Program-made: the position numbers and the translations under genes
Notes under the pieces: model-generated
Told to the model about the DNA's origin: nothing
Seen by the model: the letters and a program-made list of their open reading frames with translations, nothing else
The model's database searches: none
Source: Anaerolineae bacterium
GTDB lineage: Bacteria > Chloroflexota > Anaerolineae > UBA1429
Assembly (NCBI GenBank): GCA_963675785.1
Contig: OY776562.1
Location: 2,944,001 to 3,008,000, forward strand
Direction: 5' to 3'
DNA: 64,000 nucleotides
Part shown: one piece after another, positions 2,621-46,367 of the stretch
How the letters are laid out: the number at the start of each line of letters is the position of its first letter
How positions within the stretch are numbered: position 1 is the first letter of the stretch

Positions 2621-2683
2621 TTTTATCTTTTGTTCTCTTGGTGCATTCATATCATTTATCCAACAGTCATCTGGAGGATCAGG

Positions 2684-3739
2684 TTGTCCCTTTCAATCAT
2701 CATTCGAATTGTTGTTGTTATCATCAGTGGGGCGATCGCCTGGGAGATCGGGGTTCTGACGCCGCATGTGGCCGCCTTTATCGGAATGGGCATCGAGTTC
2801 TACGAGGCTATTCTGGCTCTTGTTGGCGCGGTCCTGGGATTTGTACTTGCTCCCCATCTCACTACCAAGCCGTTCAGAGCCGTCTATGACCGACTTGCAA
2901 GTACGCCGGTGCGGGTGTTAATCCAATCCACCATCGGCATGGTCATCGGCTTTTTGATGGGTGCTTTATTGGCCGGCCCACTTGGGAGATTACCAGGCAT
3001 TATCGGGCAGATTCTTCCCGGCATGGCTGCCTTGCTCTTGGGCTTTATCGGCGCGCGTATCGGCAGCCAGCGAGGCGATGAGGTTTTGGCTGTACTAGGG
3101 CTAAAGATGATCGAGTCCACCGAAAAGCGGCATGTGGTACTGTTGGATACAAGTGTCATTATTGATGGGCGAATTGCCGATATCGCCCGAAGCGGGTTCA
3201 TCCGTGAGATCATGATTGTGCCCCGGTTTGTGCTCAATGAACTCCAGTATGTGGCCGATTCGGCTGATGTACTTCGCCGTAACCGTGGTCGACGAGGGTT
3301 GGATGTGCTCAACCGCCTTGAAAAAGCCCCGGCTGTGTCGCTAGAGATCAGTGAAGAGATTATTGACGAGGTGGACGAAGTGGATTCCAAGCTGGTAACC
3401 CTGGCTCGACGCCTCGATTGTCCGATACTGACGAACGACTATAATCTTAACCGCATTGCCGAGCTTCAACATGTTCAGGTGCTCAATATTAATGAACTGG
3501 CCAACGCCGTCAAGGTTATTGTCCTGCCAGGCGAATCTCTTGAAGTTACCGTGATTCAAGAAGGCAAGGAAGTTGGACAAGGCGTAGGATACCTGGATGA
3601 TGGGACGATGATTGTTGTTGAGGATGGCAGGCGGCTCATTGGCCGCACTGTATCTATCAGCGTGACGCGCGTTCTGCAGACGGTCGCCGGAAGAATGATC
3701 TTTGGTCAGCCGGGTGCCGATTCAGCGACGCAGGATTAG
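2684..3739 (+). CDS. Membrane-anchored PIN/TRAM domain protein (YacL-like)
   Basis: N-terminal TM helices, LLDTSVIIDGRI PIN motif, TNDYNL, GKEVGQGVGYLDDGTM TRAM domain; TTG start at 2684 after GGAGG. Confidence 0.9.
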   Translation: MSLSIIIRIVVVIISGAIAWEIGVLTPHVAAFIGMGIEFYEAILALVGAVLGFVLAPHLTTKPFRAVYDRLASTPVRVLIQSTIGMVIGFLMGALLAGPLGRLPGIIGQILPGMAALLLGFIGARIGSQRGDEVLAVLGLKMIESTEKRHVVLLDTSVIIDGRIADIARSGFIREIMIVPRFVLNELQYVADSADVLRRNRGRRGLDVLNRLEKAPAVSLEISEEIIDEVDEVDSKLVTLARRLDCPILTNDYNLNRIAELQHVQVLNINELANAVKVIVLPGESLEVTVIQEGKEVGQGVGYLDDGTMIVVEDGRRLIGRTVSISVTRVLQTVAGRMIFGQPGADSATQD

Positions 3740-30136: not shown

Positions 30137-33100
30137 ATGGCCTTTAAAGAGGTACCTTCTCAGGTAGATTTTGTCGCCCAGGAACATAGAGTCCTGGATA
30201 TGTGGGCGCACGAGTGCTCTCATGAGCATCTTTGCGAGTTGCGCCATGGCAGCGAGCCCTGGTCTTTTATCGATGGTCCCATTACTGCCAATAATCCCAT
30301 GGGGGTGCACCACGGTTGGGGACGTACGTATAAGGACCTCTATCAACGTTATTGGGCCATGCGCGGTCGTGATGAGCGCTACCAGAACGGTTTTGATTGC
30401 CAAGGCCTTTGGGTCGAGGTCGAGGTGGAAAAAGAGCTGGGTTTTAAATCCAAAAAGGATATTTTGGATTACGGCCTGGCTAACTTTGTGCGCAAATGCA
30501 AGCAGCGCGTGCTGCGCTATGCCGCTGTACAGACCGAACAGTCTGTGCGGCTGGGCTATTGGATGGATTGGAACGACCCCGACACCTTGCGCCTGCTGGC
30601 CGACAAGCTGGACGAAGACCCCCAAGAAGTGATCACCGTCGAGGGGCCCAATGGCCCGGTAACTGATACGGTAGAGCGCATCGTCGGGCGCTTGGGTATG
30701 CCCGAACTGGGCGGCAGCTATTTCACGTTCTCTACTGAGAACAACTATATGATCTGGACCTTTTTGAAAAAATGTTGGGAAAAGGGCTGGCTCTATCGCG
30801 GTGCCGACGTGATGCCCTGGTGCCCTCGCTGTGCCACCGGCATTAGCCAGCACGAGATCGTCACCGATGGCTATGCCGAACTCACCCATCCCAGCATCAC
30901 ACTCCGTTTTCCGCTGCGTGAGAGGCCTGGTGAATCGCTGCTGGTGTGGACGACCACGCCTTGGACGCTCTCTTCCAACATCGCTGCGGCTGTGGGCCCT
31001 AATTTGATCTATATCAAGGTCAAGAACGGCGACGATATCCTCTACCTCTCCAAAGCCTGCACACACATGCTGCGTGGCGAATACGAGATACTGGCCGAGC
31101 TCAAGGGCTCGGAGATGGTTGGATGGACATACGATGGTCCCTTTGACGAGCTGCCTGCGGCCAACCAGCCCGGTGGTCTGACCGAGGTTGCCGAGTTAGC
31201 CCATACCACCGAGTTGACGGCTGTCCAGGCTCACCGCGTCATTCCCTGGGATGAGGTGGGTGAGGACGAGGGCACCGGCATTGTACACAGTGCGCCGGGC
31301 TGTGGCGCCGAGGACTTTCAACTTGGTAAGGAGAACAATCTGCCGCTCATCGCCCCGCTGAACGAAGAGGGCTATTTCGTCGAGGGGTTTGATTGGTTGA
31401 CGGGCATGAACGTGCACGAGGTGCGCGACGCCATCTTTGAGAACCTTGAGGAAAAGGGTGTTCTCTATCGTGTCAAGGATTACACCCACCGTTACCCGGT
31501 GTGTTGGCGCTGCAAGACCGAACTAGTCTTTCGGTTGGTGGACGAGTGGTTCATCAGCATGGATGAACTGCGCAACGACATGATCGAGGTGACCAAGCAG
31601 ATTCGCTGGATTCCCTCCTTTGGCCTGGACCGCGAGCTGGACTGGCTGCGGAACATGCACGATTGGATGATCAGCAAAAAGCGATTTTGGGGGCTGGCAT
31701 TGCCCTTTTGGGAATGTCCTGAATGTGATCATTATGAGGTTGTTGGCAGCGGCGAAGAGCTGCAAGAACGTGCCGTCGAGGGTTGGGAGATTTTTGAGGG
31801 GCACACGCCTCACCGACCATACGTCGACGAGGTCAAGCTCCGCTGCCCCAAGTGCGGTGCAGTGATGAATCGCGTCATTGATGTGGGTAACCCCTGGCTG
31901 GATGCTGGCATCGTTAGTTTTAGCACTTTGAGCTATCGCGCTGACAAAGAATACTGGGACAAGTGGTTCCCCGCTAACTGGATCAGCGAATCCTTCCCGG
32001 GACAATTCCGCAACTGGTTCTACAGCCTGCTGGCCATGTCCACCGTGTTGGAAAACAAGCCACCATTCCTGGAGAATTTTTCCTATGCCACGCTGTTGGC
32101 CGAGGATGGCAAGCCCATGCACAAGAGCTCGGGTAACTCGATCGAGTTTAACGAAGCTGCCGACCAGATGGGCGTGGACGTGATGCGTTGGCTCTATTGC
32201 CGACAAAAGCCAGAGAATAACCTGATTTTTGGCTATAACCGGGCTAATGAAGTGCGTCGGCAGTTCCTCATCCCGCTTTGGAACGTCTACAATTTCTTTG
32301 TGACTTATGCGCGACTCGATGGTTGGGAGCCAGAGCAAGCCGGGTTCGACCCCGATATGCCTGAAGGTCCGACGCCATGTAGCGATAATCTGCTGGATCG
32401 CTGGATTCTGGCTCGTATCAACGCCGTAGCAGAGGCTGTACGGGTGGCTTTGGAGAACTCGGACGCCTATACGGCCACATTGGCCGTAGATGGGTTCATC
32501 GATGACCTGACCAACTGGTACGTTCGCCGCAGTCGCCGCCGTTTCTGGAAGAGTGAGCATGATGCCGACAAGACCACAGCTTATGCCACGCTGTATCATG
32601 TGTTGGTCAAGCTGATCAAGGTATTGGCACCATTTACGCCTTTTGTTACCGAGATCATGTACCAGAATCTGGTGCGAGAACTGCAACCAGAAGCGCACCC
32701 CAGTGTGCACCATTGCCTGTGGCCGCTGACGGACAAATCGGCATTGGATCCCGAGCTCATCGCTCAAATGGATCTGGCTCGACAGGTGGCTAGCCTGGGG
32801 CTGGGAGCGCGCAGCCTTGTCAACATCAAAGTACGCCAGCCATTGGCCAGGGCACTGGTCTATGCTGGTGACAGACAAGTTGCCCTGTTGCCCGAGCTGA
32901 TGGATATCATCATGGACGAACTCAACGTCAAGATGGTTGAGTTTGTCCATGATGAGGGAACTTTGGTCAACTATCGCGTGGTAGCTGACGGCAAGGTTTT
33001 GGGGCCTCGCTTTGGTAAGAGCTTCCCACTGGTTCGCGCTGTTTTGGGGGCGATGCCAGCGGCTGAGGTGGCAGCAAAGGTCAAGACTGGTCGGTCGGTG

Positions 33101-33502
33101 CTGGTAACTATTGCTGGTGAAGAGGTCGAACTTTTACCCGAAGAGATCATCATCGATACCGAATCAGTAGAAGGCCTTTCGGTGCAATCGGACAAAGGCA
33201 TCACTGTGGCCATTGATAGCGTCATTACACCCGAACTGGAGGCCGAGGGATTGGTGCGCGACTTGGTGCGCTATGTGCAGACACTGCGCAAAGAGGCGGA
33301 TTACGATCTCTCTCAGCGAATTACCGTGGGACTGTTTGGCTTGGATGAGGCAGCACAGGCTGCCGTGGTCTCCTTCAAAGCCTATTTGCAAGGTGAAACG
33401 CTCTGCAACCAGGTCCTTTTTGAGGATGACGGTGCCGAATGGAACGCGCGAGGCGAATCCAAGCTGGCTGGCGCTACTATTGAGGTTGCTGTTCGGGCTT
33501 AG
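30137..33502 (+). CDS. ileS: Isoleucine--tRNA ligase, type 2
   Basis: DGPITAN, GVHH, WTTTPWTL, GTGIVH, DWMISKKRFWG, PMHKS, IleRS2-type C-terminus without zinc finger; Ile T-box upstream. Confidence 0.96.
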   Translation: MAFKEVPSQVDFVAQEHRVLDMWAHECSHEHLCELRHGSEPWSFIDGPITANNPMGVHHGWGRTYKDLYQRYWAMRGRDERYQNGFDCQGLWVEVEVEKELGFKSKKDILDYGLANFVRKCKQRVLRYAAVQTEQSVRLGYWMDWNDPDTLRLLADKLDEDPQEVITVEGPNGPVTDTVERIVGRLGMPELGGSYFTFSTENNYMIWTFLKKCWEKGWLYRGADVMPWCPRCATGISQHEIVTDGYAELTHPSITLRFPLRERPGESLLVWTTTPWTLSSNIAAAVGPNLIYIKVKNGDDILYLSKACTHMLRGEYEILAELKGSEMVGWTYDGPFDELPAANQPGGLTEVAELAHTTELTAVQAHRVIPWDEVGEDEGTGIVHSAPGCGAEDFQLGKENNLPLIAPLNEEGYFVEGFDWLTGMNVHEVRDAIFENLEEKGVLYRVKDYTHRYPVCWRCKTELVFRLVDEWFISMDELRNDMIEVTKQIRWIPSFGLDRELDWLRNMHDWMISKKRFWGLALPFWECPECDHYEVVGSGEELQERAVEGWEIFEGHTPHRPYVDEVKLRCPKCGAVMNRVIDVGNPWLDAGIVSFSTLSYRADKEYWDKWFPANWISESFPGQFRNWFYSLLAMSTVLENKPPFLENFSYATLLAEDGKPMHKSSGNSIEFNEAADQMGVDVMRWLYCRQKPENNLIFGYNRANEVRRQFLIPLWNVYNFFVTYARLDGWEPEQAGFDPDMPEGPTPCSDNLLDRWILARINAVAEAVRVALENSDAYTATLAVDGFIDDLTNWYVRRSRRRFWKSEHDADKTTAYATLYHVLVKLIKVLAPFTPFVTEIMYQNLVRELQPEAHPSVHHCLWPLTDKSALDPELIAQMDLARQVASLGLGARSLVNIKVRQPLARALVYAGDRQVALLPELMDIIMDELNVKMVEFVHDEGTLVNYRVVADGKVLGPRFGKSFPLVRAVLGAMPAAEVAAKVKTGRSVLVTIAGEEVELLPEEIIIDTESVEGLSVQSDKGITVAIDSVITPELEAEGLVRDLVRYVQTLRKEADYDLSQRITVGLFGLDEAAQAAVVSFKAYLQGETLCNQVLFEDDGAEWNARGESKLAGATIEVAVRA

Positions 33503-33503
33503 G

Positions 33504-33541
33504 AAAAATAAGGGCCGCCGAGTATTCGGCGGCTCTTTGTT
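33504..33541. terminator. Bidirectional terminator
   Basis: AGGGCCGCCGA/TCGGCGGCTCT stem flanked by A- and T-tracts, between convergent genes. Confidence 0.8.
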
Positions 33542-33549
33542 ATTAAAAG

Positions 33550-34611
33550 TCAGAGTGTTTTGAGCTGAGCAACGCCGTATTGAGCGCTCAGTTTGTTCAT
33601 AATGTTCATTACATCTTCACTGAGTGGTATGCCTTTTTGACGGTTCTCAGCTGCCCTGCGTTGCTCAGGCTCGCCAGGAATGAGGATTTCCTCGACATCT
33701 GGCTCTAGGGGTGTGGCTTTGATGCGGCGAATGACCTCATCGATGCGTTCTCTAAAGGCATCGATAGGCATAAAGCGGCTCACGTCCAGGGCTCCGACAA
33801 AATGCCCCAGACTCTGCGGCTTGGCCAGGTTAGAGAACAAACCACCAATGTCACTGGTCATCATGGCGCCGGTCAACACAGAGCTAAAAACCTCGGCAAT
33901 GAGACCCAGTCCATAGCCCTTGTAACCACCGAGGGGCAACAGATAGCCATTGCTTCCAGCTTGTGCGTCCGTCGTCGGTTGGCCGTCTTTGGTTACAGCC
34001 CAGCCCAAAGGGATATCGTGTCCTTCCAGAGCGGCCAATTGCACTTTGCCGCGAGCTACTACACTGGTGGCCATATCTAGCATGATGCCGCTCGTTTCTC
34101 CGCCGGGCACCCCAATGCAAAGCGGGTTGGTGCCCAATGCGGGCGCAATGCCACCGGTTGGCAGCACCATAGGCACGGCCGCTGTGGTGGCAAAGCCGAT
34201 CATCCCCTTGGCTACAGCCCGCTGCGCAAAGAAAAAGGCGGCGCCAAAATGGGCGCTGTTGCGTACGCCCACCATGCCGCAACCGTTTTGGCCAGCCATA
34301 TCGATGGCCATGTCCATGGCCGTTATACCCACAAAAGCACCGGGCGAATCGTCGGCATCAATGAGCGCTGTGGTGTTCGATTGGGCCAGTACCACGGGAT
34401 GAGGGTCACCGTTCATGCCCCCATGTTCAATGCGTTGGCAATAGTTCTGCAAGAGACGAGAAACACCGTGACTGCCCAAGCCGTGTAATTCACCCTGGAC
34501 TAGGCTTTCAGTGACCGATACGGCTACATCACGCCGCATCCCGGCCTTGGTCAGAACTGCCAGTGTAAAACGATCCAGTTCGTCTGCCGCAATGCGTACA
34601 TAGTCGGTCAT
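33550..34611 (-). CDS. Ldh_2 family oxidoreductase (malate/L-lactate/sulfolactate dehydrogenase-like)
   Basis: SHGV, NSAHFG, GTNP, LDMATS, GGYKGYGL, IPGE. Confidence 0.9.
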   Translation of the reverse strand: MTDYVRIAADELDRFTLAVLTKAGMRRDVAVSVTESLVQGELHGLGSHGVSRLLQNYCQRIEHGGMNGDPHPVVLAQSNTTALIDADDSPGAFVGITAMDMAIDMAGQNGCGMVGVRNSAHFGAAFFFAQRAVAKGMIGFATTAAVPMVLPTGGIAPALGTNPLCIGVPGGETSGIMLDMATSVVARGKVQLAALEGHDIPLGWAVTKDGQPTTDAQAGSNGYLLPLGGYKGYGLGLIAEVFSSVLTGAMMTSDIGGLFSNLAKPQSLGHFVGALDVSRFMPIDAFRERIDEVIRRIKATPLEPDVEEILIPGEPEQRRAAENRQKGIPLSEDVMNIMNKLSAQYGVAQLKTL

Positions 34612-34748
34612 ATCTTGTCTCCGTTCTCGTTGCCAATATTCCATGTGGGTATCATACCGAGTTGCCTCTCTCTGTCCACTTGTTTTTCGCGCTCTTACTT
34701 TGCGGCGGTATCGCTAACCCCGTACAATGACAATACTTTATTGAAAGG

Positions 34749-36968
34749 ATGATCCCTTTGGATCTCTTTGCTCATGCTCGAAATGAACAGAATGAACATG
34801 AGGCCCCCTTGGCCGCACGGATGCGCCCTCGCAACCTGGATGAGTTCATTGGCCAGGAGCACGTGGTGGGCCCTGGCCGCTTGCTGCGCCGCGCCATCCA
34901 GGCCGACCAGCTCTCGTCGCTGATCTTTTACGGGCCGCCAGGTACGGGAAAAACCACGTTGGCTATGGTAATTGCCAACACGACCAGTTCTCGCTTTGTA
35001 ACGCTGAATGCTGTATTGGCTGGCGTGCAGGATATTCGCAAAGTGACAGCCGAGGCACGTGAAGACCGCGATCTCTATGGACGTCGCACCATCCTTTTTG
35101 TGGACGAGGTACACCGCTGGAACAAGGCCCAGCAGGACGCACTGCTGCCCTGGGTAGAGAACGGCACCATTGTCATGATTGGTGCGACGACGGAGAATCC
35201 CTGGTTTTCGGTGAATAAAGCGCTGTTGAGTCGCAGCCGTGTCTTTCAACTCGTGCCCCTCAGTGAGGGCGATTTACTCAAGATCGCCGAACAAGCTATT
35301 GCTGATGCCGAGCGCGGCTATGGCAAGTTGAATGTCATCATCCAGCCGGATGCTATGGACCATCTGGTGAATGTGGCTAACGGTGATGCGCGCTCGCTAC
35401 TCAATGCTTTGGAATTGGCTGTCGAGACCACCGACCCTGATAACCAGGGGCGAACCATCATTAGTCTTGCTGTGGCTGAAGAATCTATTCAACGCCGCGC
35501 TGTGCTTTACGATCGTGAAGGCGATTATCACTTTGATACCATTAGTGCTTTTATCAAATCGATTCGCGGCTCTGATCCAGATGCGGCCCTCTATTGGCTT
35601 TCTAAAATGGTTTATGCTGGCGAAGACCCGCGTTTCATCTTTCGGCGGCTGCTCATTTCTGCCAGCGAGGATATCGGTTTGGCCGATCCACAGGCTTTGC
35701 GTGTGGTAGAGAGCGCTGCTGCCACCTTTGATCGTGTCGGATTGCCAGAGGGCCAGTTTCACTTGGCGGAGGCTACGCTCTACCTGGCCACTGCGCCCAA
35801 GTCCAATTCGACAATGGGCTATTTCGATGCTTTGGAGGTGGTTCGCACCGAACGTAGTTCGGATGTGCCAGCACATCTCAAGGATGCTAGTCGCGACAAA
35901 GAGGGTTTTGGCCACGGTGAGGGGTATTTGTATCCCCATGCTTATCGTGATCACTGGGTAGCTCAGCAATATCTACCCTCCTCGCTGCAAGGGCGTCTGT
36001 TCTACGAGCCCGGCGATCAGGGCTATGAAAAGAGTATTCAGGTACAGGTTCAGCAACGCCGCGAGGCCCAATTGGCAGCAGTGGTGGATACCTCCGATGC
36101 CGCTGATGTGCTCACCTTTTCGCCGGTGAATGCGAACGAGAGCCACTGGCTGACGCGAGCCATCGGTTCTGTCGGTCAGGAATTGGCCAATCTTCGCGAG
36201 ATCGTCTTTGGTCAGGAGCGCTGGGAACGCCATTGGTTGGTTTTGGATCTCAACGCCGGTTCTGGTTTGCTTACCTGGGAAGCACTGCGCCGGGTGCCCG
36301 AAGGTGGTGTATGGGTTTTGGTGGACAATGAATCGACGGCACAGGCACTCATCGAACAATCCCAACATCTTACCCAGTTGTCCCGACCGCAGGTGTGGGG
36401 GGGAGCAATCCCCGATGTGACTGAACATGCGGATGTGCGTTTCGACCGCATCATAGGGCGAAATGCGCTAGGCTCACTTCAGGACAAGGCGAGCGCTTTG
36501 AAGGCGATTGCAGATATATTAGCTGCTGAAGGTGCGCTAAGCCTGGTAGAGGCCATTCCCTCGCGGGCACAACGTCTATCCGATCTGTTGAACACTTCCG
36601 CCTGGCCCCAGGGCCTTGCTGGCGCCTTTCGCGAACTGGAAGAAGAACTCTATAACGATCCCACCAGTCCTTTGACCAATTGGAAGGCAGATGATCTGGC
36701 CGCATTTGCTACGGAAGCGGGATTGCGCCTGGTTCAAGTGACCACTGTACCTCTTGAACGTCAGGTGCTCATCAATGCCAAAACAATTGAGGGCTGGTTT
36801 GGCGAGGGAAGCAAAAAGGGAGCTCCGTCTTTGGGACAGCGCCTTAGGAGCACCTTGAGCGACGATCAGGTGGGTACTATTGAATTGGCTTGCCGAACTC
36901 AGCTTGTTGGTGATCCTGTGCCCTGGCATGCCGAATATGTCCATCTCCAGGCTGCGCGGGGCCGCTAG
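34749..36968 (+). CDS. rarA: Replication-associated recombination ATPase RarA/MgsA with C-terminal methyltransferase-like domain
   Basis: [48 protein letters not shown]; extra ~280 aa containing VLDLNAGSG. Confidence 0.88.
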
Positions 36969-36971
36969 GAA

Positions 36972-37703
36972 TTATTCTGCTGTTCGCAGACCACCCCGCA
37001 AATAAATATGGCTAACAATGGCGTCGGTGCAGCCGGCCACATCGTTTAAGATGCTTTCAGGTCTAAAAATGAGAATATCCCACTCCTGAGGTTGCTCATT
37101 GGATGGATCTACGAGTTCGCAGAGAACACCCACGCCGCCACTCGCGCAAGGAATCGCGAGATCAACCTGAATGGCGTGATTCTCCATGGAAATGGTATAG
37201 GGGGAGGCGCAGGGTACTTCGCGAATTTCCAAAGCTTTCTTGAGTCTGTCCACAGCGGTTTCGCGATCCCACAACTGGCCGATTTCGGTGCTGCTGTAGA
37301 GTAGAGATAGGCGTGTGGGGATAAAAGTGATGCGCCGCAGGTTTTCACTGATGATAGGGTGGGGCAGTTCTTCAAGCTTAGCCAGGTCAAAGCGATAGTA
37401 TAGTTCGCCGGCGCGCGGGTGTGCGGCTTCTTCGGGCAATAATTCGCGGCGAGGCATCACGTGCACTTGCTGCACGTGGGCCATGTATCTGACAGAGTAC
37501 TGCCAATCCTCAAAAATGTGAGGGTGATAAAAAGCTAAATAGGCCACATGAATTCTGCTTGGTGCACGTTTGACGGGGATGCGGTACCAATGTTCGGTTG
37601 TAATGTGCCCCCAATCTGTCACAGTAGGGACAATAACCACCAAGGCGGCGGGGTCACTTTCGGCATATTCAATGCTTTCGATATCGGCTGGCTCATCCCA
37701 CAT
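36972..37703 (-). CDS. Hypothetical protein: WYRIP (PUA/EVE-like) domain plus degenerate DUF559/Vsr-like domain
   Basis: WYRIP, YLAFY, RRELLP, RRITFI; C-terminal VDLAIP...W.ILIF pattern. Confidence 0.6.
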   Translation of the reverse strand: MWDEPADIESIEYAESDPAALVVIVPTVTDWGHITTEHWYRIPVKRAPSRIHVAYLAFYHPHIFEDWQYSVRYMAHVQQVHVMPRRELLPEEAAHPRAGELYYRFDLAKLEELPHPIISENLRRITFIPTRLSLLYSSTEIGQLWDRETAVDRLKKALEIREVPCASPYTISMENHAIQVDLAIPCASGGVGVLCELVDPSNEQPQEWDILIFRPESILNDVAGCTDAIVSHIYLRGGLRTAE

Positions 37704-37787
37704 GGCGCATCCTCATGTTGTTTTCGCCTAGTATGCCAGAATAGCAAAACGGGTGCCAGTGTACTGGCACCCGTTTCTCTAATAGGA

Positions 37788-38870
37788 TCAGCCGCCGAAG
37801 ATGCCGCCCAATGTAGACCAGAGGTGATCCCACTGTGGTGTCGAAGCATCCGTGGGGAAGAGCAAATATCTGGGGATGAGATAGACTAGATACAGCCCCA
37901 TGAGATAAAAGGCGTGTGCCTTTTTAAGCTTGCCCTTGGTGAACCAGAGAATCAGCCACAAAATGATGCCTGTGATGGTTTCCCAAGGAAGATCCCAGAG
38001 CACAAGAGGCTCGGGAACATAGTAAGTCGAGATCAAAGCACCGCCACCGATGGCTACCAAAGGGTTGGTGATGTTGCTGCCAACCAATGTGCCCAGTGAG
38101 ATACCATGGGCCTTTTTGCCAACGCCAGAAAGCGCTGTGGTGAGTTCGGGAAGTGCCGAAGCCAGACCCAACGTGACAACGCCGATAAGCGAACCACTAA
38201 TGCCTGTCTGTACGACAACAGTCTCAGTTGCGTGAAGCACAACTTGGGCTGCACCAACCGTTATAGCCATGGCCAATAGCGAGATGAAAGAATACTCCCA
38301 GGCCTCTTTTTTGTTTGCAGGCGCCTCAGTATCGTCATCATCGGTCTCAGGTTGACCATCAAAGTGCTTGCGCTCATCCCAATAAAGGTACCAGGTGTAA
38401 AGGATGAACGTGCCAAACAAAATGAGACCATCAATGCGGGAAAAATTTCTGTCCCAGCCAAGGATGATACACATAACCGTCGTGCCAATCATGGGGATCA
38501 TGCTCTTCCAGAGGAAGTAACGCCGGAAGTACAACGTGCCTGCCAAAAAGACAACAAGCCCCAGAATGACGGTCTGCTGTACCACATCTGAGCCAATGTT
38601 TGCGCCCAGGACAACGGAGGATAGAACTTCTCTGCGTGAGGGATCACCCAGAATGCCCACGGATGCTGTCAGGTGAGAAGTGATTTCTGGGATACTTGTG
38701 GCCAGTGATACAACGGTCATGCCCATAAATGTCGTTGATAAATTGAAATACTTTGCCAGACCAATGAGCTTGCCGACGGCCTTGTCAGCTGCAAGAACGA
38801 GCACAACAAGTGCACCCACGCCGATTAGTGATACTACCCAGAGACTTTGTGACTGAAAAAACGCTGCCAT
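37788..38870 (-). CDS. Sodium:calcium antiporter (CaCA family)
   Basis: Alpha repeats ATSIPE...GSD and ASALPE...GSN; about 10 TMs. Confidence 0.9.
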   Translation of the reverse strand: MAAFFQSQSLWVVSLIGVGALVVLVLAADKAVGKLIGLAKYFNLSTTFMGMTVVSLATSIPEITSHLTASVGILGDPSRREVLSSVVLGANIGSDVVQQTVILGLVVFLAGTLYFRRYFLWKSMIPMIGTTVMCIILGWDRNFSRIDGLILFGTFILYTWYLYWDERKHFDGQPETDDDDTEAPANKKEAWEYSFISLLAMAITVGAAQVVLHATETVVVQTGISGSLIGVVTLGLASALPELTTALSGVGKKAHGISLGTLVGSNITNPLVAIGGGALISTYYVPEPLVLWDLPWETITGIILWLILWFTKGKLKKAHAFYLMGLYLVYLIPRYLLFPTDASTPQWDHLWSTLGGIFGG

Positions 38871-38964
38871 TCCCCGACCATCCAAGCTAGTGAGTGGGCT
38901 CCGCGATACGTTTTTAGGTCTGTGTATGCGATATGAGCAAACTCTGCCAATAATACGACATGGT

Positions 38965-38993
38965 ATTCTACCAACCCCTAAAATAGCTGTCAA
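38965..38993 (-). promoter_or_regulatory. Sigma70 promoter for the antiporter
   Basis: TTGACA-17 nt-TAGAAT on the minus strand. Confidence 0.7.
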
Positions 38994-39558
38994 GCAGTGC
39001 TAAAATGCATGTTTGTGCAATGTGCCCTCTTGTTCTTAGGGTTTCAATTTCAGGGGATTTAGAGAGATTGTGCTACTTTTAACCGTGCCATTCGATTTAG
39101 TTCTAGGGTGAAAGGCCCCAGTGTTTTAGGAGCAAAGTCAGAGCTAGTGTTGAAACTTGAACTAGATTTAACGACTATTCTTTTACTATAATCACAAATA
39201 GAGTCTTTGGATGCAACTATTTGGTCAGGAGACGTGGTTCGCGCCGTGGACTTTGGCATCGAGGCAGGTTAGGAGCAAGATAGTTTCTTTATAGTTAATT
39301 GAAATAACCACATCATTATTGACTGCAGTTCCTGATGGGGCGTGAGCATGCGCCGAGAGTCGTTTGTTTGGTGCTATGTGCACAAAGTTTTGAGCTACGG
39401 TGCCTGCTGCGAGGAAAGGCTCTTCTAGCAGAACTGTAAAAGTGCGGCATCATTTGAGAACTGGCTAAGCAGCATCAAGAGATTTTTCAGAATAGCAGCT
39501 TCTAATCTGGATTGGTACGATAGCCGTGGAGATGAATGCGTCACAAGGGCATGACCAC

Positions 39559-39597
39559 AAAATAAGAGGACATCCTACAGGGATGTCCTCTTATTTT
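39559..39597. terminator. Perfect 17-bp bidirectional terminator
   Basis: AAAATAAGAGGACATCC-tacag-GGATGTCCTCTTATTTT. Confidence 0.85.
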
Positions 39598-39925
39598 ATG
39601 ATTCTAGCGCTTTGCGTACAGCCTGAATAATTTGGAATCCATCAGCTGTGCCCACTGCTGCCAGTTGATTGTTTACAAAGGCGAGGGGATAAAATACGTA
39701 TCCTCGCTCATGCTCTGTTTGCTTGATAAGCTGAGCATATTCTTGCGGAAGCTCACCATTGTCTATGTCAAAGTAGGTCAAGCTGACCTGGTCGCCGAAC
39801 ATACGCTCGAGTTGAAGCCGTGTGATCTCGCTAGTCTCCGCCGAAGACCTGCGCGGGCCTCAACCACCGCCGCAGAACTCGGCACCGGTCTGGCCGAGAA
39901 TGAGCACCTTAACTTTTTCCGCCAT
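39596..39925 (-). CDS. Putative selenoprotein, thioredoxin-fold YuzD/DUF1462-like (CGGGU), 109 aa
   Basis: ATG at 39925 with GAGAGGG SD; codon 22 is TGA (39862-39860) after C-G-G-G; frame continues into the 68-aa track ORF; SECIS-like hairpin follows. Confidence 0.8.
39829..39853 (-). promoter_or_regulatory. Candidate bacterial SECIS element
   Basis: mRNA CGC-A-GGUCUUC-GGC-GGAGACU-A-GCG; apical loop begins with G 18 nt after the UGA. Confidence 0.65.
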
Positions 39926-39966
39926 GTATACCCTCTCATACCTTTATACCCAGGGTGGGTACGCAA

Positions 39967-39995
39967 AATATACCATTGATGGTCTCGTCAGTCAA
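39967..39995 (-). promoter_or_regulatory. Sigma70 promoter for the putative selenoprotein gene
   Basis: TTGACT-17 nt-TATATT with TG extended -10. Confidence 0.7.
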
Positions 39996-40003
39996 TCGGC
40001 CGG

Positions 40004-40032
40004 TTGACACCTGTACCCCTCAACCATATAAT
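40004..40032 (+). promoter_or_regulatory. Consensus sigma70 promoter for the HAD gene
   Basis: TTGACA-17 nt-TATAAT. Confidence 0.8.
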
Positions 40033-40122
40033 CCACACGAATTGTCTTCTGTGTGCAACCCCTGGCTATGAAACTGCGTCTTATCATTGTCTCAAATCCT
40101 GATTTAGGAGTTTGACTGAGCG

Positions 40123-40737
40123 ATGCCTATCAAGGCCTTTGTCTTTGACTGCGGAGGCGTGCTTTTTCGCGATGGTGACCTGACGCCCTATGACGTCTGG
40201 GCAGAGCGTGCTGGAATTACACCAGAGGCGTTACGTCAGCTTTTATGGGCCAGTGATTTTTGGCGTCAGGCCGAGTGTGGCCAGATTACAGATGCACGTT
40301 ACTGGGAATTGATTCTGCAAGAGCTGGGCCTCGACGATGAGACTTCACCCCAGGATCTTAAGCAGGATCTTTGGACAACGTGGGAGCTTGATTCTGCCCT
40401 GATAGAAACGATTGACGAGCTCCGAAAGCACTATTCCGTTTCAATGCTTAGCAATGCAACTGATGATCTGGAGTGCATTCTCGATACGTTTGGGGTTTCG
40501 GATCGTTTTGAGCATATCATCAATTCTGCACGGGTAGGCACTGCCAAACCCGATAAAGCGATTTTTGCCCACACGCTCGAACGAATTGGCTTTGAACCAG
40601 ATCAAGTTGTATTTATTGACGACCGCGCTGAGAATATCACTGCAGCTTCGGGTGTGGGGATGCATGTCATCTGGTATGTTGGTCTAAATGAACTGCGTCG
40701 CCGCCTCTCCTTGTTCGATCATAACCTCTCTTTTTAA
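40123..40737 (+). CDS. HAD-superfamily phosphatase (subfamily IA)
   Basis: FDCGGV, LSN, KP, FIDD. Confidence 0.9.
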   Translation: MPIKAFVFDCGGVLFRDGDLTPYDVWAERAGITPEALRQLLWASDFWRQAECGQITDARYWELILQELGLDDETSPQDLKQDLWTTWELDSALIETIDELRKHYSVSMLSNATDDLECILDTFGVSDRFEHIINSARVGTAKPDKAIFAHTLERIGFEPDQVVFIDDRAENITAASGVGMHVIWYVGLNELRRRLSLFDHNLSF

Positions 40738-40826
40738 TTCTTCTTCGTCTGTCGCACGTCCTGCTCCTGGAACGTCTGTAACGACCGTTACGTCGTACAT
40801 AGGTTGATACTCTGTGAGGTAGACCA

Positions 40827-43259
40827 ATGCGCTTTACGCGTATTCTTTTTGTATTTCTCTGTATTCTGATATGTATAGCTCTTCTTGGGACTATTGGCAT
40901 TCTAGGGGTATACGCTTATTTTGCGCGAACTTTGCCCGCGCCGAGTGAGTTGTACGAACTGGCCAGCAGCTTTCAGAACACGCGCATTATGGATGCTGAT
41001 GGACAGCTTCTCTACGAGTTCTACGATCCCTCTGCCGGGTTACGTGTTGTGACAGCCTATGAGAATATCTCTCCGCTTCTTATTGATGCAGTTGTCGCCA
41101 CCGAGGACCCCACATTTTTCAGCAATGTTGGGGTGAATCCTCTATCTATTGCCCGTGCTTTTTATCAGAACTTGCGCGCGGGTTATGTGGTTTCTGGCGC
41201 TAGCACTATTACCCAGCAGGTGGCGAAAAACGTGTTTTTGAGCACCGAGAGAACCTACACACGTAAGATCGAAGAAGCTATCCTTGCTACAGAGCTGACG
41301 CGCACCTATTCCAAAGAACAGATTCTGGGGGTCTATCTTAATGAGAGTTACTTTGGAAACATGGCGTATGGTATAGGCGCTGCTTCAGAGACCTACTTTG
41401 GCAAGACACCCGATGAACTGACCCTTGCAGAGGCTGCGCTGTTGGCTGGCTTGCTGCAATCCCCCGTAGGGTATGACCCCTACACCAATCCGGATGTGGC
41501 TATAGCGCGTCGGGCTACGGTGCTTTCTCTGATGCAGCGTCGGGGCTATATCACAGCTACAGAAGCTGTTGAAGCATCGGCTGCACCACTTGGCGTGGTC
41601 GAATCACAGACAAGCCTCAAAGCTCCCCATCTTGTCATCGAAGCGCGCTCGTGGCTAGAGAAAGAATATGGTACAGAGTACGTCTATGAAGCCGGTTTGC
41701 AGGTTCAAACCACCATCGATAGCGATTTGCAGGAGATGGTCGAGCGTGATGTGACCGAGGGCATTGCTCAATTGGACGGCTATAACGCCAATAATGCATC
41801 TGTCGTGGTTCTGGATCCGACAACGGGCGATATCTTGGCTATGGTGGGCAGCGCCGATTTCTATGATGCTTCGATTAACGGCCAAATCAACATGGCTACC
41901 ACAGCGCGACAAACAGGTTCGGCGATCAAACCCTTTACCTATCTTGCGGCACTGGAACAGGGTTATACGGCGGCTTCGCTGTTGATGGATATCGAGCAAG
42001 AATTCCCTGATGGCGTGAATTCTCCTTATGTACCCACAAACTATGATCTCGAGGAATGGGGGCCCATTTCATTGCGAACAGCCCTGGCTAACTCTCGCAA
42101 TATCCCCGTTGTTCAGGTTTTGAATGATATCGGCGTAGATTCTCTTTTGGAGATTTGTGATCGACTAGGCATCGAGCTTGAAGATCGCGACGATTATGGA
42201 CTATCGCTTACGCTAGGCAGCGGTGAGGCTACTTTGCTAGATATGACCCAAGCGTTTGGCGTTCTGGCGAATGGTGGTGCCTTGGTACGGGCTCATTACT
42301 TGAGCAGCATAAGCGATAGTGCGGGGCAAATCATTCTGGATCAGTCGAATTTGCAGGCAGAGCAAGTGGTAGATGCCCGTCTGGCCTACATCATTACCGA
42401 TATTCTCTCGGATGATGAGGAACGCATGCGCGCATTCGGCACGGTGAACAATTTGGATGTTGGCTTTACGGCAGCAGTTAAAACGGGCACAACCAATGAC
42501 TATCGCGATAGTTGGGCTATTGGGTATACGTCTGATATAGTCGTTGGTGTATGGGTGGGGAATGCTGACAATTCCGAGATGACCGAGCTTTCTGGCTCTC
42601 GTGGCGCTGGCTTGATCTGGAACATGATCATGAGTGACTATTATGCAGTCAGTGAGCCAACACCCTTTGCTGAGCCAGAGGGGTTGGTTACTGTGGCAGT
42701 TTGCCCCGTTTCCGGCGAGCTACCAGGTGCTTATTGCCCGGATGCTGTTGAAGAGTTATTCACCACTGAGACAGCGCCGACAATGACTTGCACGGTGCAC
42801 AAGACGGTACAATTATGCAATGTTACGAACAAATTGGCCCTTTCGTATTGCCCTAACGATCAATTGACTGAATTGCTCGTTACCGATTTTGGCGAGGAGT
42901 GGGACGAGTGGGCAATTTCTCAGGGGTACACTGTGCCCCCGCGAGAGTACTGTGATGTTCATACATCGCCGTCTTTGGTTGAGTTGAGTGTGCCCTCTGT
43001 GGTTTCTGGGGTTGTCGACATCTACGGAACGACGATGTTGGATGATTTTTCCTATTATGTGGTCGAGTTAGGGTATGGTTCTTCTCCTGGTTACTGGAGC
43101 CCTATTAGCCCTTCGATTCACGCTGCGGTTAGCCATAGTGTGTTGTACCGCTGGGATACGCGCAGTTTGAGTAGTGGTGACTATTCATTGCGCCTGGTGG
43201 TGTATAACGCCAGTGGCTGGCAGCAAGCGACAACCACAACCTGCTATGTGCAGAACTAG
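40827..43259 (+). CDS. Class A penicillin-binding protein (transglycosylase-transpeptidase) with Cys-rich and Ig-like C-terminus
   Basis: EDPTF, GASTITQQ, RKIEE; SAIK (SxxK), SRN, KTGT. Confidence 0.93.
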   Translation: MRFTRILFVFLCILICIALLGTIGILGVYAYFARTLPAPSELYELASSFQNTRIMDADGQLLYEFYDPSAGLRVVTAYENISPLLIDAVVATEDPTFFSNVGVNPLSIARAFYQNLRAGYVVSGASTITQQVAKNVFLSTERTYTRKIEEAILATELTRTYSKEQILGVYLNESYFGNMAYGIGAASETYFGKTPDELTLAEAALLAGLLQSPVGYDPYTNPDVAIARRATVLSLMQRRGYITATEAVEASAAPLGVVESQTSLKAPHLVIEARSWLEKEYGTEYVYEAGLQVQTTIDSDLQEMVERDVTEGIAQLDGYNANNASVVVLDPTTGDILAMVGSADFYDASINGQINMATTARQTGSAIKPFTYLAALEQGYTAASLLMDIEQEFPDGVNSPYVPTNYDLEEWGPISLRTALANSRNIPVVQVLNDIGVDSLLEICDRLGIELEDRDDYGLSLTLGSGEATLLDMTQAFGVLANGGALVRAHYLSSISDSAGQIILDQSNLQAEQVVDARLAYIITDILSDDEERMRAFGTVNNLDVGFTAAVKTGTTNDYRDSWAIGYTSDIVVGVWVGNADNSEMTELSGSRGAGLIWNMIMSDYYAVSEPTPFAEPEGLVTVAVCPVSGELPGAYCPDAVEELFTTETAPTMTCTVHKTVQLCNVTNKLALSYCPNDQLTELLVTDFGEEWDEWAISQGYTVPPREYCDVHTSPSLVELSVPSVVSGVVDIYGTTMLDDFSYYVVELGYGSSPGYWSPISPSIHAAVSHSVLYRWDTRSLSSGDYSLRLVVYNASGWQQATTTTCYVQN

Positions 43260-43263
43260 GGGT

Positions 43264-43301
43264 AAAAAAACGCGGTACGGTTGGCAAAGTCAACCGTACC
43301 G
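43264..43301 (-). terminator. Intrinsic terminator
   Basis: CGGTACGGTTG/CAACCGTACCG stem with A7 on the plus strand (U-tract on minus). Confidence 0.75.
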
Positions 43302-43319
43302 TAGTAGTTGGCCTTGTAA

Positions 43320-43685
43320 CTAATCGAACTCGTCAAATTCAATGATATTAGCCAAACGTTCTGGCATAGGGGTCATGTTTTTGATAGAAAAATCACCATA
43401 AGGTGTAGAAAGAATCTCATCTTCAGTCTTGAATAAAAAGAACGCAACTCGTGTTGGCATATTTTCTTTTTTTGGCACATCATATGTTCCACATAGCTTT
43501 TCTGTGCCTTCTAAAGACAAGTACTGTTCCATATACGGGCATTGCCAACGCATACGATCTAATTCTGCATTCGGAACTACGAAACCTGCCCAGTCGATGC
43601 TTTGAGGTGTATCATCGAGGATCATTTCGACTAGAACGGCGTCTTTGTTGAAATCATAACAACCATGCAAGATAGCTTTTTTCAT
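43320..43685 (-). CDS. Hypothetical protein (AT-rich gene)
   Basis: 121-aa ORF with GAGGTG SD; WQCPYMEQYL, RVAFF, TPYG motifs. Confidence 0.7.
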   Translation of the reverse strand: MKKAILHGCYDFNKDAVLVEMILDDTPQSIDWAGFVVPNAELDRMRWQCPYMEQYLSLEGTEKLCGTYDVPKKENMPTRVAFFLFKTEDEILSTPYGDFSIKNMTPMPERLANIIEFDEFD

Positions 43686-43809
43686 TGTGGAATTCACCTC
43701 AGAAGTAGGGATTCTGATCAATGAAGATAGTTTAGCATTGAATTATTAGCAGGAGAAGGCAAGGTCGGCTTTGATTCTGAGACAAGAAAAGAACGCATCG
43801 AGGTAATTT

Positions 43810-43845
43810 AAAAGGGGCTCACCTTTAGGTGAGCCCCTTTTTTTT
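43810..43845. terminator. Bidirectional terminator
   Basis: AAAAGGGGCTCACCT-tt-AGGTGAGCCCCTTTT. Confidence 0.85.
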
Positions 43846-43854
43846 ATATTGTAA

Positions 43855-44940
43855 CTAGGGTAGATAGACTAATGGGTTACGTTGAACACCATTGACGATA
43901 ACCTCAAAGTGCAGGTGAGGCCCGGTGCTGTTTCCTGTGCTACCGCATGTGCCGATCTGCTGGCCCTTGGCGACAGATTGTCCAACTTGAACCCAATAGG
44001 AGGTCATGTGGGCATAGAGTGTTCTATAGCCGTTACCATGATCAATAATGGCCATGTTGCCGTATCCCACGGTACTCCAGCCCGCTGCTACCACATATCC
44101 TGCATCTGCAGCATAGATTGGTGTGCCAGCCGATGCTGCGATGTCGATGGCAAGGTGCCCCGCCCAATAACCCTGACTAATATAGCCACTCATCGGCCAA
44201 GAAATGACTCCTGAGCCTTTGACAGCGCTGCTAGGAGCGCTTGAGGCAGTTGCTATCACTGCTCTGGGAGTATAAGGCTTGATACCGCCGGGAACAATGA
44301 GTCTTTGCCCCACCGTGAGTTCGTAAGGCTCGGTCAGGCCGTTTTCCTCAAAGCTGGTAATGGCTTCAGTTTCTACCTGATACTTTTTGGCAATGGATTC
44401 AAGGGTGTCTCCACTCGCAACCGTGTGATAGGCACCATCGACCGGCAAGATATAGAGTACGTCCCCAATCTGCAGCAAGTCAGGTGTGTCTTCAAGTTCA
44501 TCGTTTGACCACAGTATTGTGTTGGCATCCAGGCCAAATTTGTCAGCAATGCCCAGCACGGTGTCGTGTGCCTGGACTGTGTATTCGATGACAGAATTGC
44601 GAACCTGGCGTTCTGCAGAGACTACCGGCAAAATGCTGCGAATGGAAAGCTCAGTGGAAGGCACAGCCGCAGCCGTTAAAAAGCCCGTCTGTGTCTCAGA
44701 GGTGAACGAAGCGGTAGTGATTTGAGACGTTTCTGTGGACTCTACTATCTGTCCGGCAATGATGCTGCTGGAGGGGTTGATGGTGAAAGCGAGTACGAGA
44801 ACCAGGAAAGCTATAAACGCATGACTCAAATACCTGACCCAATCCTGTGAATCGGGTCGGTGAAGCTTTCGCACTCTAGTTTTAGGTATTGTTCGATCCA
44901 GATGGCCCTTGGCGAGGCGAGACCGCCAGGCAATATCCAT
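43855..44940 (-). CDS. LysM x2 - M23 peptidase (cell-wall hydrolase)
   Basis: TM, two LysM domains, HLAID (HxxxD), YAH, STGPHLHFE. Confidence 0.92.
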   Translation of the reverse strand: MDIAWRSRLAKGHLDRTIPKTRVRKLHRPDSQDWVRYLSHAFIAFLVLVLAFTINPSSSIIAGQIVESTETSQITTASFTSETQTGFLTAAAVPSTELSIRSILPVVSAERQVRNSVIEYTVQAHDTVLGIADKFGLDANTILWSNDELEDTPDLLQIGDVLYILPVDGAYHTVASGDTLESIAKKYQVETEAITSFEENGLTEPYELTVGQRLIVPGGIKPYTPRAVIATASSAPSSAVKGSGVISWPMSGYISQGYWAGHLAIDIAASAGTPIYAADAGYVVAAGWSTVGYGNMAIIDHGNGYRTLYAHMTSYWVQVGQSVAKGQQIGTCGSTGNSTGPHLHFEVIVNGVQRNPLVYLP

Positions 44941-44945
44941 GAGAC

Positions 44946-46193
44946 TTAGATATCCTTATTCAAGGTGTTTAAAAAGTCAGTATTGGTAGTAGCTCGTCGA
45001 AGCCTTTCAAGGATGGGCTCGACACTTTCAACTCCACCGATTGTATCAACCATTCGCCGCAATGTCCAGATTCTCTGAAGCGTAATAGCGTCGAGAAGCA
45101 ATTCCTCGCGACGTGTGCCCGATCGCTGAATGTCGATGGCAGGGAAGACGCGTCTTTCGGCAAGGCGGCGCACCAGATGTAGTTCCATGTTGCCTGTGCC
45201 CTTGAATTCCTCATAGACCATGTCATCCATTCTGCTGCCCGTATCTATAAGGCAGGTGGCGATGATGGTCAAGCTGCCGCCTTCCTCCATGTTTCTGGCT
45301 GCACCGAAAAAGCGCTTTGGGGGATATAGCGCAGTGGGATCCAAGCCACCAGAGAGTGTTCGACCGCTAGGCGGGACCACCAGGTTGTACGCTCTGGAAA
45401 GCCGTGTGATGCTATCCAACAGGATAACGACGTCCTTGCCCATTTCCACAAGCCGTTTTGCTCGCTCTAGCGCCATTTCTGCTACACGAGCATGGTCTTT
45501 GACTGGTTCGTCAAATGTCGAGCTAAAGACTTCGGCCTCTACGGAGCGGTCCATATCAGTTACTTCTTCAGGGCGTTCGCCAATGAGGACAACCATAAGA
45601 TGGACGTCACTGTGATTGGCTGAGATGCCGTTGGCGATATCTTTGAGGATGGTGGTTTTACCAGCTTTTGGAGGAGAGACGATCAATCCACGTTGGCCGC
45701 GCCCGATGGGTGAGAGCATGTCGATGAGTCGAGTAGAGTAAATGCCGGGGGCGGTTTCGAGACGGAGTTGTTCTTTCGGAAAAATGGGCGTTTGGCGTTC
45801 AAATCGAGGTCTTGATTTGGCTAACTCTGGATCGCCGTTGTTAATGGCCTCTACGCGTAACAAACTATAATATTTTTCCGAATCCTTGGGCGCTCGAACT
45901 TGGCCAACAACCATATCGCCTGTACGCAGTGCAAACCGCCGGATTTGAGACTGTGATACATAAACATCGTCCTGCCCGGGCAGCAGGTTATGGCTTCGGA
46001 GAAAGCCAATGCCATCCTGAACGATCTCTAGCACACCGCCTCGGAAGGTGTGGCCCTTTTCTTCAGCCTGCGATTGAAGCAGGCGGAATATCAGATCGCC
46101 CTTTTTCAGGCGACTGTAACCGCTAATTTCGCGGGTACGCGCGATTTCTCGCAGCTCTGGCAGGGTCATGGTATCGAGTTGGACAATATTCAC
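44946..46193 (-). CDS. rho: Transcription termination factor Rho
   Basis: GIGFLR, YVSQSQIRRF, PPKAGKT, ERPEEVTD, DSITRL, FGAARN, SGTRREELL; GTG start. Confidence 0.97.
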   Translation of the reverse strand: MNIVQLDTMTLPELREIARTREISGYSRLKKGDLIFRLLQSQAEEKGHTFRGGVLEIVQDGIGFLRSHNLLPGQDDVYVSQSQIRRFALRTGDMVVGQVRAPKDSEKYYSLLRVEAINNGDPELAKSRPRFERQTPIFPKEQLRLETAPGIYSTRLIDMLSPIGRGQRGLIVSPPKAGKTTILKDIANGISANHSDVHLMVVLIGERPEEVTDMDRSVEAEVFSSTFDEPVKDHARVAEMALERAKRLVEMGKDVVILLDSITRLSRAYNLVVPPSGRTLSGGLDPTALYPPKRFFGAARNMEEGGSLTIIATCLIDTGSRMDDMVYEEFKGTGNMELHLVRRLAERRVFPAIDIQRSGTRREELLLDAITLQRIWTLRRMVDTIGGVESVEPILERLRRATTNTDFLNTLNKDI

Positions 46194-46367
46194 ACGAAAC
46201 GCTCCATGTGGTGTTGCTGTTTTTACGCACAACAACAGCAAGATGAGAACAAATAAGGGAATTTAAGTCTGGGGGAATCCGAGAAATTGGAAGAATACCG
46301 ATAAAGATTACCGCAGTGAATGATAAAAGAGGTCATAGGAGCAGATTTGCCTGCTCCTACTTGCCCT

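Follow-up and report, generated by a model that had tools for sequence, protein, structure and literature searches.

Does the 68-residue open reading frame (ORF) that gene callers place on the minus strand at 39596..39802 of a 64,000-nucleotide stretch of an Anaerolineae bacterium genome (contig OY776562.1 of assembly GCA_963675785.1, positions 2,944,001 to 3,008,000; the whole stretch is referred to here as the window) represent a complete gene, or is it the C-terminal part of a longer gene in which an in-frame UGA is read as an amino acid? We put the probability of the second answer at roughly 85%: judged from the sequence and its relatives, the locus at 39596..39925 (minus strand) would be a monocistronic gene encoding a thioredoxin-fold protein of 109 residues that belongs to the DUF1462/YuzD family, with the UGA at codon 22 decoded as selenocysteine (Sec). 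This reading draws on observations, made in the present analysis, of the frame, the conservation of the UGA, the pairing of cysteine (Cys) and Sec forms, the RNA-level selection on a downstream hairpin, the Sec machinery of the genome and the fold. The locus is almost certainly a genuine and systematically mis-annotated selenoprotein gene, whose family is new within a well-known kind, and the predicted decoding of the UGA as Sec is well supported.

One frame with one internal stop codon

The minus strand between 39925 and 39596 holds a single frame of 110 codons, 109 residues followed by a TAA stop, whose sole internal stop is the TGA of codon 22 (39860..39862). Its translation reads MAEKVKVLILGQTGAEFCGGG-[TGA]-GPRRSSAETSEITRLQLERMFGDQ...ALES*, with GPRRSSAET directly after the TGA. 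The first-pass annotation of this DNA had proposed such a frame, with the 68-residue ORF as its C-terminal part, and the translation bears this out; the ORF is a truncation artefact of gene calling. Its initiating Met42 is kept in just 6 of the 26 relatives described below, and in a collection of 5.8 billion proteins the gene is represented solely by the 68-residue form (P0002) together with one 75%-identical relative of the same length.

To collect close relatives, 61 related genomes, including the genome of the window itself (G000), were searched in six frames at the protein level. The gene is present in 27 of these genomes at 28 places, and exactly one in-frame TGA is found at 26 of the 28, whose identity to the query in this search is 29–46%, apart from the 99% of G000's own copy. 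When the 26 read-through proteins are aligned (protein identity 27–44%), the TGA column is invariant within the motif C-x-x-G-U-G-P-R-R-S-S-x-E-T, and the partner Cys of the C-x-x-x-U motif, TGC at codon 18 (39872..39874, minus strand), is Cys in 25 of the 26. The 21 codons that precede the TGA are conserved as protein, with G11, E16, C18 and G21 each kept in at least 90% of the relatives. The two remaining places are a 37-residue partial second match (L050) and a copy in the 27th genome (L046, G015:C6), which reads ...EICRGG-TGA-GP... and keeps both the TGA and the hairpin, with a 1-nucleotide (nt) deletion between them (at about locus positions 220–330) that shifts the frame and is either an assembly error or the mark of a recent pseudogene.

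The same arrangement extends beyond the close relatives. In an even draw of 401 genomes of the phylum, 16 genomes match, 14 of them new, and 13 of these 14 carry one TGA at the same place; the fourteenth (G343) is a Cys form, with the motif C-A-E-P-C-G. Contigs from four sequencing runs of four studies show the TGA and the hairpin unchanged; two of these contigs match the window almost exactly and may be where its sequence came from, and the other two differ from it elsewhere. Kept in the relatives and in the contigs of all four runs, the TGA is neither a sequencing error nor a private mutation.

More distant homologues were sought with a profile of the 26 proteins against 1.84 billion representative sequences, which gave 291 matches at E ≤ 0.001; the 151 sequences examined are the best 150 of these 291 (P0002 included) and P0003 from the 5.8-billion-protein collection. 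The Sec column is covered by 84 of the 151, of which 76 have Cys, five have tryptophan (W) and three are one-column alignment slips with a Cys adjacent in each. The other 67 start C-terminal of the column, which is where truncated gene calls would begin. The solved structure 1XG8 likewise has Cys at this position, in line with the earlier proposal that the TGA sits where a second redox Cys is expected. The nearest upstream Cys in the 76 Cys forms lies at CxxxC spacing in 48, CxxC in 10 and Cx4C in eight, with three CC pairs, three longer spacings and four forms with no Cys within eight residues; the CxxC forms include four YuzD-like homologues that score 97–140 bits on DUF1462. Since CxxxC is the commonest arrangement, CxxxU is the norm of the family, and the view of it as an unusual spacing does not stand.

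A coding-region hairpin under RNA-level selection

A stem begins 11 nt after the UGA and in the window comprises 7 bp closed by a 3-nt loop, which places 17 nt between UGA and loop and the first loop G at +18. The upper stem-loop, GGUCUUC-GGC-GGAGACU (39833..39849, minus strand), is formed by codons 26–31 (R-S-S-A-E-T), and in the window genome it extends to CGC-A-GGUCUUC-GGC-GGAGACU-A-GCG (39829..39853, minus strand). It was this extended hairpin, with its loop G, that the first-pass annotation had put forward as a selenocysteine insertion sequence (SECIS). The loop G and the upper stem, conserved over 6–7 bp, survive comparison with the relatives, whilst the CGC/GCG lower stem is private to the window genome: of the 26 relatives, 18 form its pair 13-37, 11 the pair 14-36 and 8 the pair 15-35, and it was rejected as a conserved element.

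According to the available text of a May-2026 review (PMC13188914), the bSECISearch consensus for bacterial SECIS elements (bSECIS) consists of an apical loop of 3–9 nt, an upper stem of 4–16 bp and a UGA-to-loop distance of 16–37 nt, with a G at loop position 1 or 2 that mostly precedes a G or U, and a minimum free energy of at most −7.5 kcal/mol. In stem, loop size, spacing and loop G followed by G/U the hairpin agrees with this model as that text presents it (PMC13188914). Folding of 25 nt and 43 nt gives −9.8 and −11.4 kcal/mol respectively, both beyond the energy threshold, but the conserved 17-nt core by itself falls short of it at −5.7 kcal/mol.

The core GGUCUUC-GNN-GGAGACC is nearly invariant in the 26 close relatives, and its conservation is visible at synonymous positions. 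Third-position entropy across these relatives is 0.00 at codons 26–30 and 0.62 at codon 31, and lies at 0.5–2.0 at all remaining codons, the TGA excepted; this range also holds for invariant residues outside the stem (P24 1.59, P80 1.46, G92 1.11, Y51 0.93, E16 0.71). Within the stem, Ser27 is TCT in 26/26 and Ser28 is TCG in 25/26, and at codon 29 the amino acid varies (E10/A9/S4/L3) while the third base is G in all 26. The synonymous sites of codons 26–31 appear frozen because these codons form the SECIS stem.

Covariation was assessed on 39 sequences, the 26 relatives and the 13 from the phylum sample, which had been collected by protein similarity alone. The stems of the 13 phylum-level sequences differ in sequence (GGUCUC/GAGAUC, AAUCUC/GAGAUU, GCCUUC/GAAGGU and GCCCUC/GAGGGC) and stand in the same register, which persists even in sequences that encode W-S-Q-x-E-I or M-P-S-L-K-V in place of R-S-S-x-E-T. 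The seven pairs are formed in 96.3% of cells, as against 40–58% for slid partners; compensatory changes occur in five of the seven pairs (18 cells), and in a shuffle control that ignores relatedness none of 500 shuffles reached the observed values. All 39 sequences have G at loop column 24 and either G or T at column 25. The comparative data, and not single-sequence folding, thus indicate that the hairpin is under selection at the RNA level. The main clade forms its stem from the codons of S-S-x-E-T, a motif also found in Cys-form YuzD proteins, and the SECIS therefore appears to be superimposed on a stretch of peptide that was conserved beforehand. An Rfam E-value search of window positions 39000–40500 returned no SECIS and no other credible family.

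Selenocysteine machinery and the proposed decoding

The genome contains the machinery that decoding would require, as the first-pass annotation had suggested should be checked: selA (556 bits), selB (319 bits) and selD (386 bits) all score over their curated cut-offs, and ARAGORN finds a tRNA-Sec with anticodon TCA. With these components the hairpin, lying inside the coding sequence and carrying a G-G/U apical loop, would recruit SelB loaded with Sec-tRNA(Sec); bound there while the ribosome sits at the UGA, the complex would insert Sec at position 22 by the ordinary bacterial route. As the decoding mechanism is the ordinary one, the locus would extend a known kind of gene and overturn nothing.

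A selA match over cut-off is general in the group (56 of the 61 relatives), so co-occurrence of selA with the gene cannot discriminate and was rejected as a correlate. One relative (G008) carries the gene and has no selA match, yet selB and tRNA-Sec are present in it.

Two further observations concern the machinery of G000 itself. Outside the window, its selD (G000:C1:352208-353143, L011) is itself a selenoprotein gene, with one in-frame TGA (...TTAAG-U-AAKTGPE...) and, 11 nt after its UGA, a hairpin GGGUC-CUGA-GACCC similar to that of the window gene. A second Rfam tRNA-Sec match, at G000:C1:69106-69191, scores 47.6 bits against a gathering score of 47 and is probably an ordinary long-arm tRNA. 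A genome-wide scan for TGA-N(8-14)-GGTC...GAC[CT] returned 14 candidates; apart from selD and the window gene none looked real, and a genome-specific SECIS consensus could not be drawn from it.

Family membership, fold and active site

Assignment to DUF1462/YuzD, proposed by the first-pass annotation, is upheld by profile searches: the protein scores 28.7 bits on Pfam DUF1462 (PF07315) against a cut-off of 25, and all 26 clade members match at E ≤ 0.01, the best at 2.2e-10. The score of the window protein is marginal in comparison with the 97–140 bits of the YuzD-like homologues. An NCBIfam scan of the protein returned no selenoprotein model and no match. Read-through and Cys forms in public collections are named 'disulfide oxidoreductase YuzD' (JGI/IMG, which gives this name to one of the five W forms) or 'YuzD family protein', and never selenoprotein.

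AlphaFold2, run on the 26-row alignment, returns a model with a predicted local distance difference test (pLDDT) score of 90.5 and the topology beta(5-11), alpha(28-46), beta(47-53), alpha(61-74), beta(81-84), beta(87-91), alpha(96-108). Among solved structures the DUF1462 protein SA0798 of S. aureus (1XG8) comes first both in sequence comparison (E 1.5e-6) and in Foldseek (E 7.2e-6, template modelling (TM) score 0.69), where thioredoxins (TM 0.46–0.54) and ArsD structures (3kgk, 3mwh and 3ktb, TM 0.52–0.54) follow. In the predicted model Sec22 and Cys18 lie in a Gly-rich coil between strand 1 and helix 1. The proline of Y-P-L, encoded by CCC at codon 80 (39686..39688, minus strand), occupies the cis-Pro position of the thioredoxin fold and is invariant in 26/26.

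The protein shares with 1XG8 and its family the S-S-x-E-T motif after the active-site loop, Y-x-D, and Y-P-L with its invariant proline. It differs from YuzD in that Sec would replace the second active-site Cys and the SECIS sits inside the S-S-x-E-T codons, and from the CxxC of the four YuzD-like homologues in a spacing longer by one residue. It also stands apart from thioredoxin proper, in which a CGPC-type motif caps a helix: here the motif is in the coil before helix 1, and the window protein has no match at E ≤ 1 to PF00085, PF00462, PF10262 or PF13192, although one of the 26 members reaches PF13192 at E 0.006.

As to function, we lean towards a small thiol/selenol-disulfide oxidoreductase, in which Sec22 and Cys18 would form a redox-active selenenylsulfide within the Gly-rich loop and exchange with substrate disulfides or thiols.

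Weighing the alternatives

A number of observations weigh against the selenoprotein and oxidoreductase reading. On the RNA side, the stem shows zero compensatory changes among the 26 close relatives, because the core is almost invariant there; the shuffle control treats the 39 sequences as unrelated, and the independent covariation events are few since the 13 added sequences fall into three related groups. In contrast to a typical bSECIS, the hairpin has a short 6–7 bp stem and an unconserved lower stem, and the conserved 17-nt core alone folds at −5.7 kcal/mol, weaker than −7.5, the remainder coming from that lower stem. Its single-sequence stability is ordinary against shuffles (z = −1.35 for 71 nt, z = −0.09 for 43 nt), and these values, not being significant, were not used as evidence. 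On the protein side, the C-G-G-G-U loop is modelled at a pLDDT of 72–75 and lies six residues before helix 1, not at a helix cap as in thioredoxin, and the Cys-Sec spacing varies between 0 and 5 residues (CU, Cx3U, Cx4U, Cx5U). In one relative (L044, in G008) the usual Cys is a His and the residue immediately before the Sec is a Cys (...V-H-R-G-C-U-G-P-T-R-S-S...). ArsD structures match the model about as well as thioredoxins do, and a redox partner gene was not found as a conserved neighbour in the 26 loci.

The protein-side points bear mainly on function, and they lend some weight to the idea that the gene encodes a real selenoprotein that is not an oxidoreductase: its Cys...Sec loop would then be a selenium-based pincer, binding As(III), Sb(III), Hg(II) or selenium after the manner of an ArsD-like chaperone or carrier. 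ArsD (PF06953; 3kgk, 3mwh) has a thioredoxin-like fold of similar size, with a TM score of 0.52 to the model, and carries its cysteines in the loop that follows strand 1. A variable spacing of 0–5 residues in a loop, rather than at a helix cap, is more typical of a binding loop, and one close Cys-form homologue (P0015, C-C-S-S-G-C-C-G-P), which pairs with a Sec form in the tree described below, reaches 24.7 bits on Pfam ArsD (E 3e-5, cut-off 27). Against this, none of the 26 Sec members matches PF06953 at E ≤ 0.01, and just two soft ligands are conserved, whereas ArsD uses three cysteines. Of the 66 ORFs listed as neighbours in the 26 loci 47 were scanned, and neither these nor the nine ORFs scanned between window positions 30137 and 46241 include an ars or mer gene; an invariant proline (Pro80) in the cis-Pro position is also in keeping with a site of thiol-disulfide exchange. 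We therefore regard a metalloid or selenium pincer as unlikely. Were it true, this YuzD/ArsD-like family would be the first ArsD-type chaperone to use selenocysteine, and the whole DUF1462 family would consist of metal(loid) or selenium carriers, not disulfide oxidoreductases.

A far less probable proposal keeps the full-length protein and dispenses with Sec, the UGA being read through by near-cognate insertion of Trp or Cys, or reassigned throughout the genome. The five database proteins with W at this codon (P0004, P0010, P0011, P0014 and P0061) appear to speak for it. Each has the W in the G-G-U-G-P context and comes from a contig of 546–1067 bp, and on such short contigs gene callers would sometimes have chosen a code in which TGA specifies Trp; the W is thus, we infer, the same TGA translated under that code. 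Homologues with a sense codon at this position have Cys, never Trp (76/76). TGA closes 411 of the 1333 long frames in the genome and is an ordinary stop there, a second TGA terminates nine of the 26 family genes, the full Sec machinery is present, and simple read-through would have no use for a conserved hairpin with a SelB-type G-G/U loop. Read-through without Sec is very improbable.

That the TGA is instead a nonsense mutation in a pseudogene or an assembly error, with only the 68-residue ORF or nothing expressed, is the least probable proposal of all. Damaged or misassembled copies do exist, as the single-nucleotide deletion downstream of the TGA in L046 illustrates, and the public protein collection holds only the 68-residue form; yet the TGA recurs in 26/26 aligned relatives, 13 more distant genomes and four run assemblies, the 21 codons before it are conserved as protein and Met42 is present in only 6/26.

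Distribution and phylogeny

The extent of the Sec form was examined with a DNA signature of UGA plus hairpin, scanned across 185,579 species with one genome per species; the signature was built on the main hairpin and so finds only that hairpin type. It gave 67 loci, a set that overlaps the 26 relatives. An in-frame family member (profile E ≤ 4e-17) is encoded at 61 of them, and six are chance matches in other phyla. By title, 58 of the 61 are of Chloroflexota type (Anaerolineae, Anaerolineales, Chloroflexia, Caldilineae), and the carriers found are almost all Anaerolineae and other Chloroflexota metagenome-assembled genomes. The other three (L053, L103, L116) are titled Bacillota or Eubacteriales and encode Sec forms with the same hairpin signature, with motifs such as ...C-Y-S-G-G-U-G-P-A-K-S-L-E-E-T... 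and ...C-F-S-G-G-U-G-P-S-W-S-P-A-E-T..., so that the family extends beyond Chloroflexota.

A tree of 123 rows, 46 Sec (the five W forms included) and 77 Cys, was built with database proteins shorter than 99 or longer than 135 residues left out. It is poorly resolved, but the Sec label requires seven changes on it as against 37.4 in shuffles, so that Sec forms cluster. It contains a few close sister pairs of Sec and Cys forms, and a single origin of the Sec form is neither shown nor excluded.

Relation to catalogued selenoproteins

Table 1 of the review cited above lists 119 prokaryotic selenoprotein families or subfamilies with Pfam or NCBIfam identifiers, and neither a PF07315/DUF1462 entry nor a CxxxU motif appears in it (PMC13188914). 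Its nearest entries are thioredoxin-like and include Trx (PF00085, UxxC), Grx (PF00462, UxxC) and SelW-like (PF10262, CxxU), together with 'Thioredoxin-like selenoprotein Sec.1/Sec.2' (PF13192, CxU/UxC) (PMC13188914). Like these catalogued thioredoxin-fold selenoproteins (PMC13188914), the present protein is small, has a Cys/Sec motif, a coding-region bSECIS and Cys-containing homologues; it differs in its Pfam family, in a CxxxU motif with the Sec C-terminal, and in the position of that motif in a loop before helix 1. The available part of the deep-Sep paper does not mention the DUF1462/YuzD family (PMC12013277). In full-text literature neither DUF1462 as a selenoprotein nor PF07315 was found, although supplementary tables of selenoproteome papers could hold the family. 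Titles and abstracts on selenoproteins in Anaerolineae gave nothing relevant, and a literature search on YuzD found no experimental work on it.

If the reading is true, the bacterial selenoproteins gain DUF1462/YuzD as a further family, and a domain of unknown function has its catalytic residue pinpointed. The locus also exposes a systematic annotation error, visible as the 68-residue stub in the 5.8-billion-protein collection and as the 67 late starts among 151 sequences and the five W forms of the 1.84-billion library. The locus is moreover a clear case of dual coding, in which six codons also form the SECIS stem and the register is kept in lineages whose peptide has changed.

Flanking signals and genomic neighbourhood

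The first-pass annotation had given the gene its own promoter, Shine-Dalgarno sequence, ATG and terminator, and all four were located, the promoter as a consensus match only. Upstream on the minus strand lies a sigma-70-like TTGACT-17-TATATT with a TG extension (39967..39995, 10/12 consensus positions), and a Shine-Dalgarno-like GAGAGGG (39931..39937), read from the sequence, stands 5 nt 5' of the ATG. At the other end an intrinsic terminator, with a 20-bp stem between A and U tracts, overlaps the TAA stop (39556..39600, minus strand); its hairpin folds at −30.5 kcal/mol (z = −8.6), and none of 200 shuffles was equally stable.

The upstream neighbour is a divergent HAD-hydrolase gene (40123-40737, plus strand). 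Downstream of the terminator, 38994-39555 forms a gap of about 560–600 bp without a long ORF or Rfam match, beyond which lies a Na/Ca-exchanger gene (37788-38993, minus strand). The remaining genes at window positions 30137–46241 (tRNA synthetase, Ldh_2, MgsA, PBP1, M23 peptidase, Rho) are housekeeping genes. Upstream neighbours vary among relatives, which together with the promoter-like site, the terminator and the divergent upstream gene agrees with the proposal that the gene is monocistronic.

The sole recurrent neighbour is a convergent gene for a LonB-like protease, 52–89 nt downstream in 19 of the 26 loci. It is missing from the window genome, with no remnant in the gap, and was therefore rejected as a functional partner; its recurrence is read as inherited gene order and not as a functional link.

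Three minor observations concern neighbouring genes. The HAD-hydrolase gene is faced by a perfect sigma-70 consensus, TTGACA-17-TATAAT (40004-40032, plus strand, 12/12), which adjoins, in divergent orientation, the promoter-like site that precedes the selenoprotein gene. At a single locus (L024), a thioredoxin gene (PF00085; 1931-2407, minus strand) lies 107 nt upstream on the same strand. At another single locus (L049), the divergent neighbour is a YqeC plus MobA-like gene (2317-3291, plus strand); YqeC is linked to selenium-dependent molybdenum hydroxylases.

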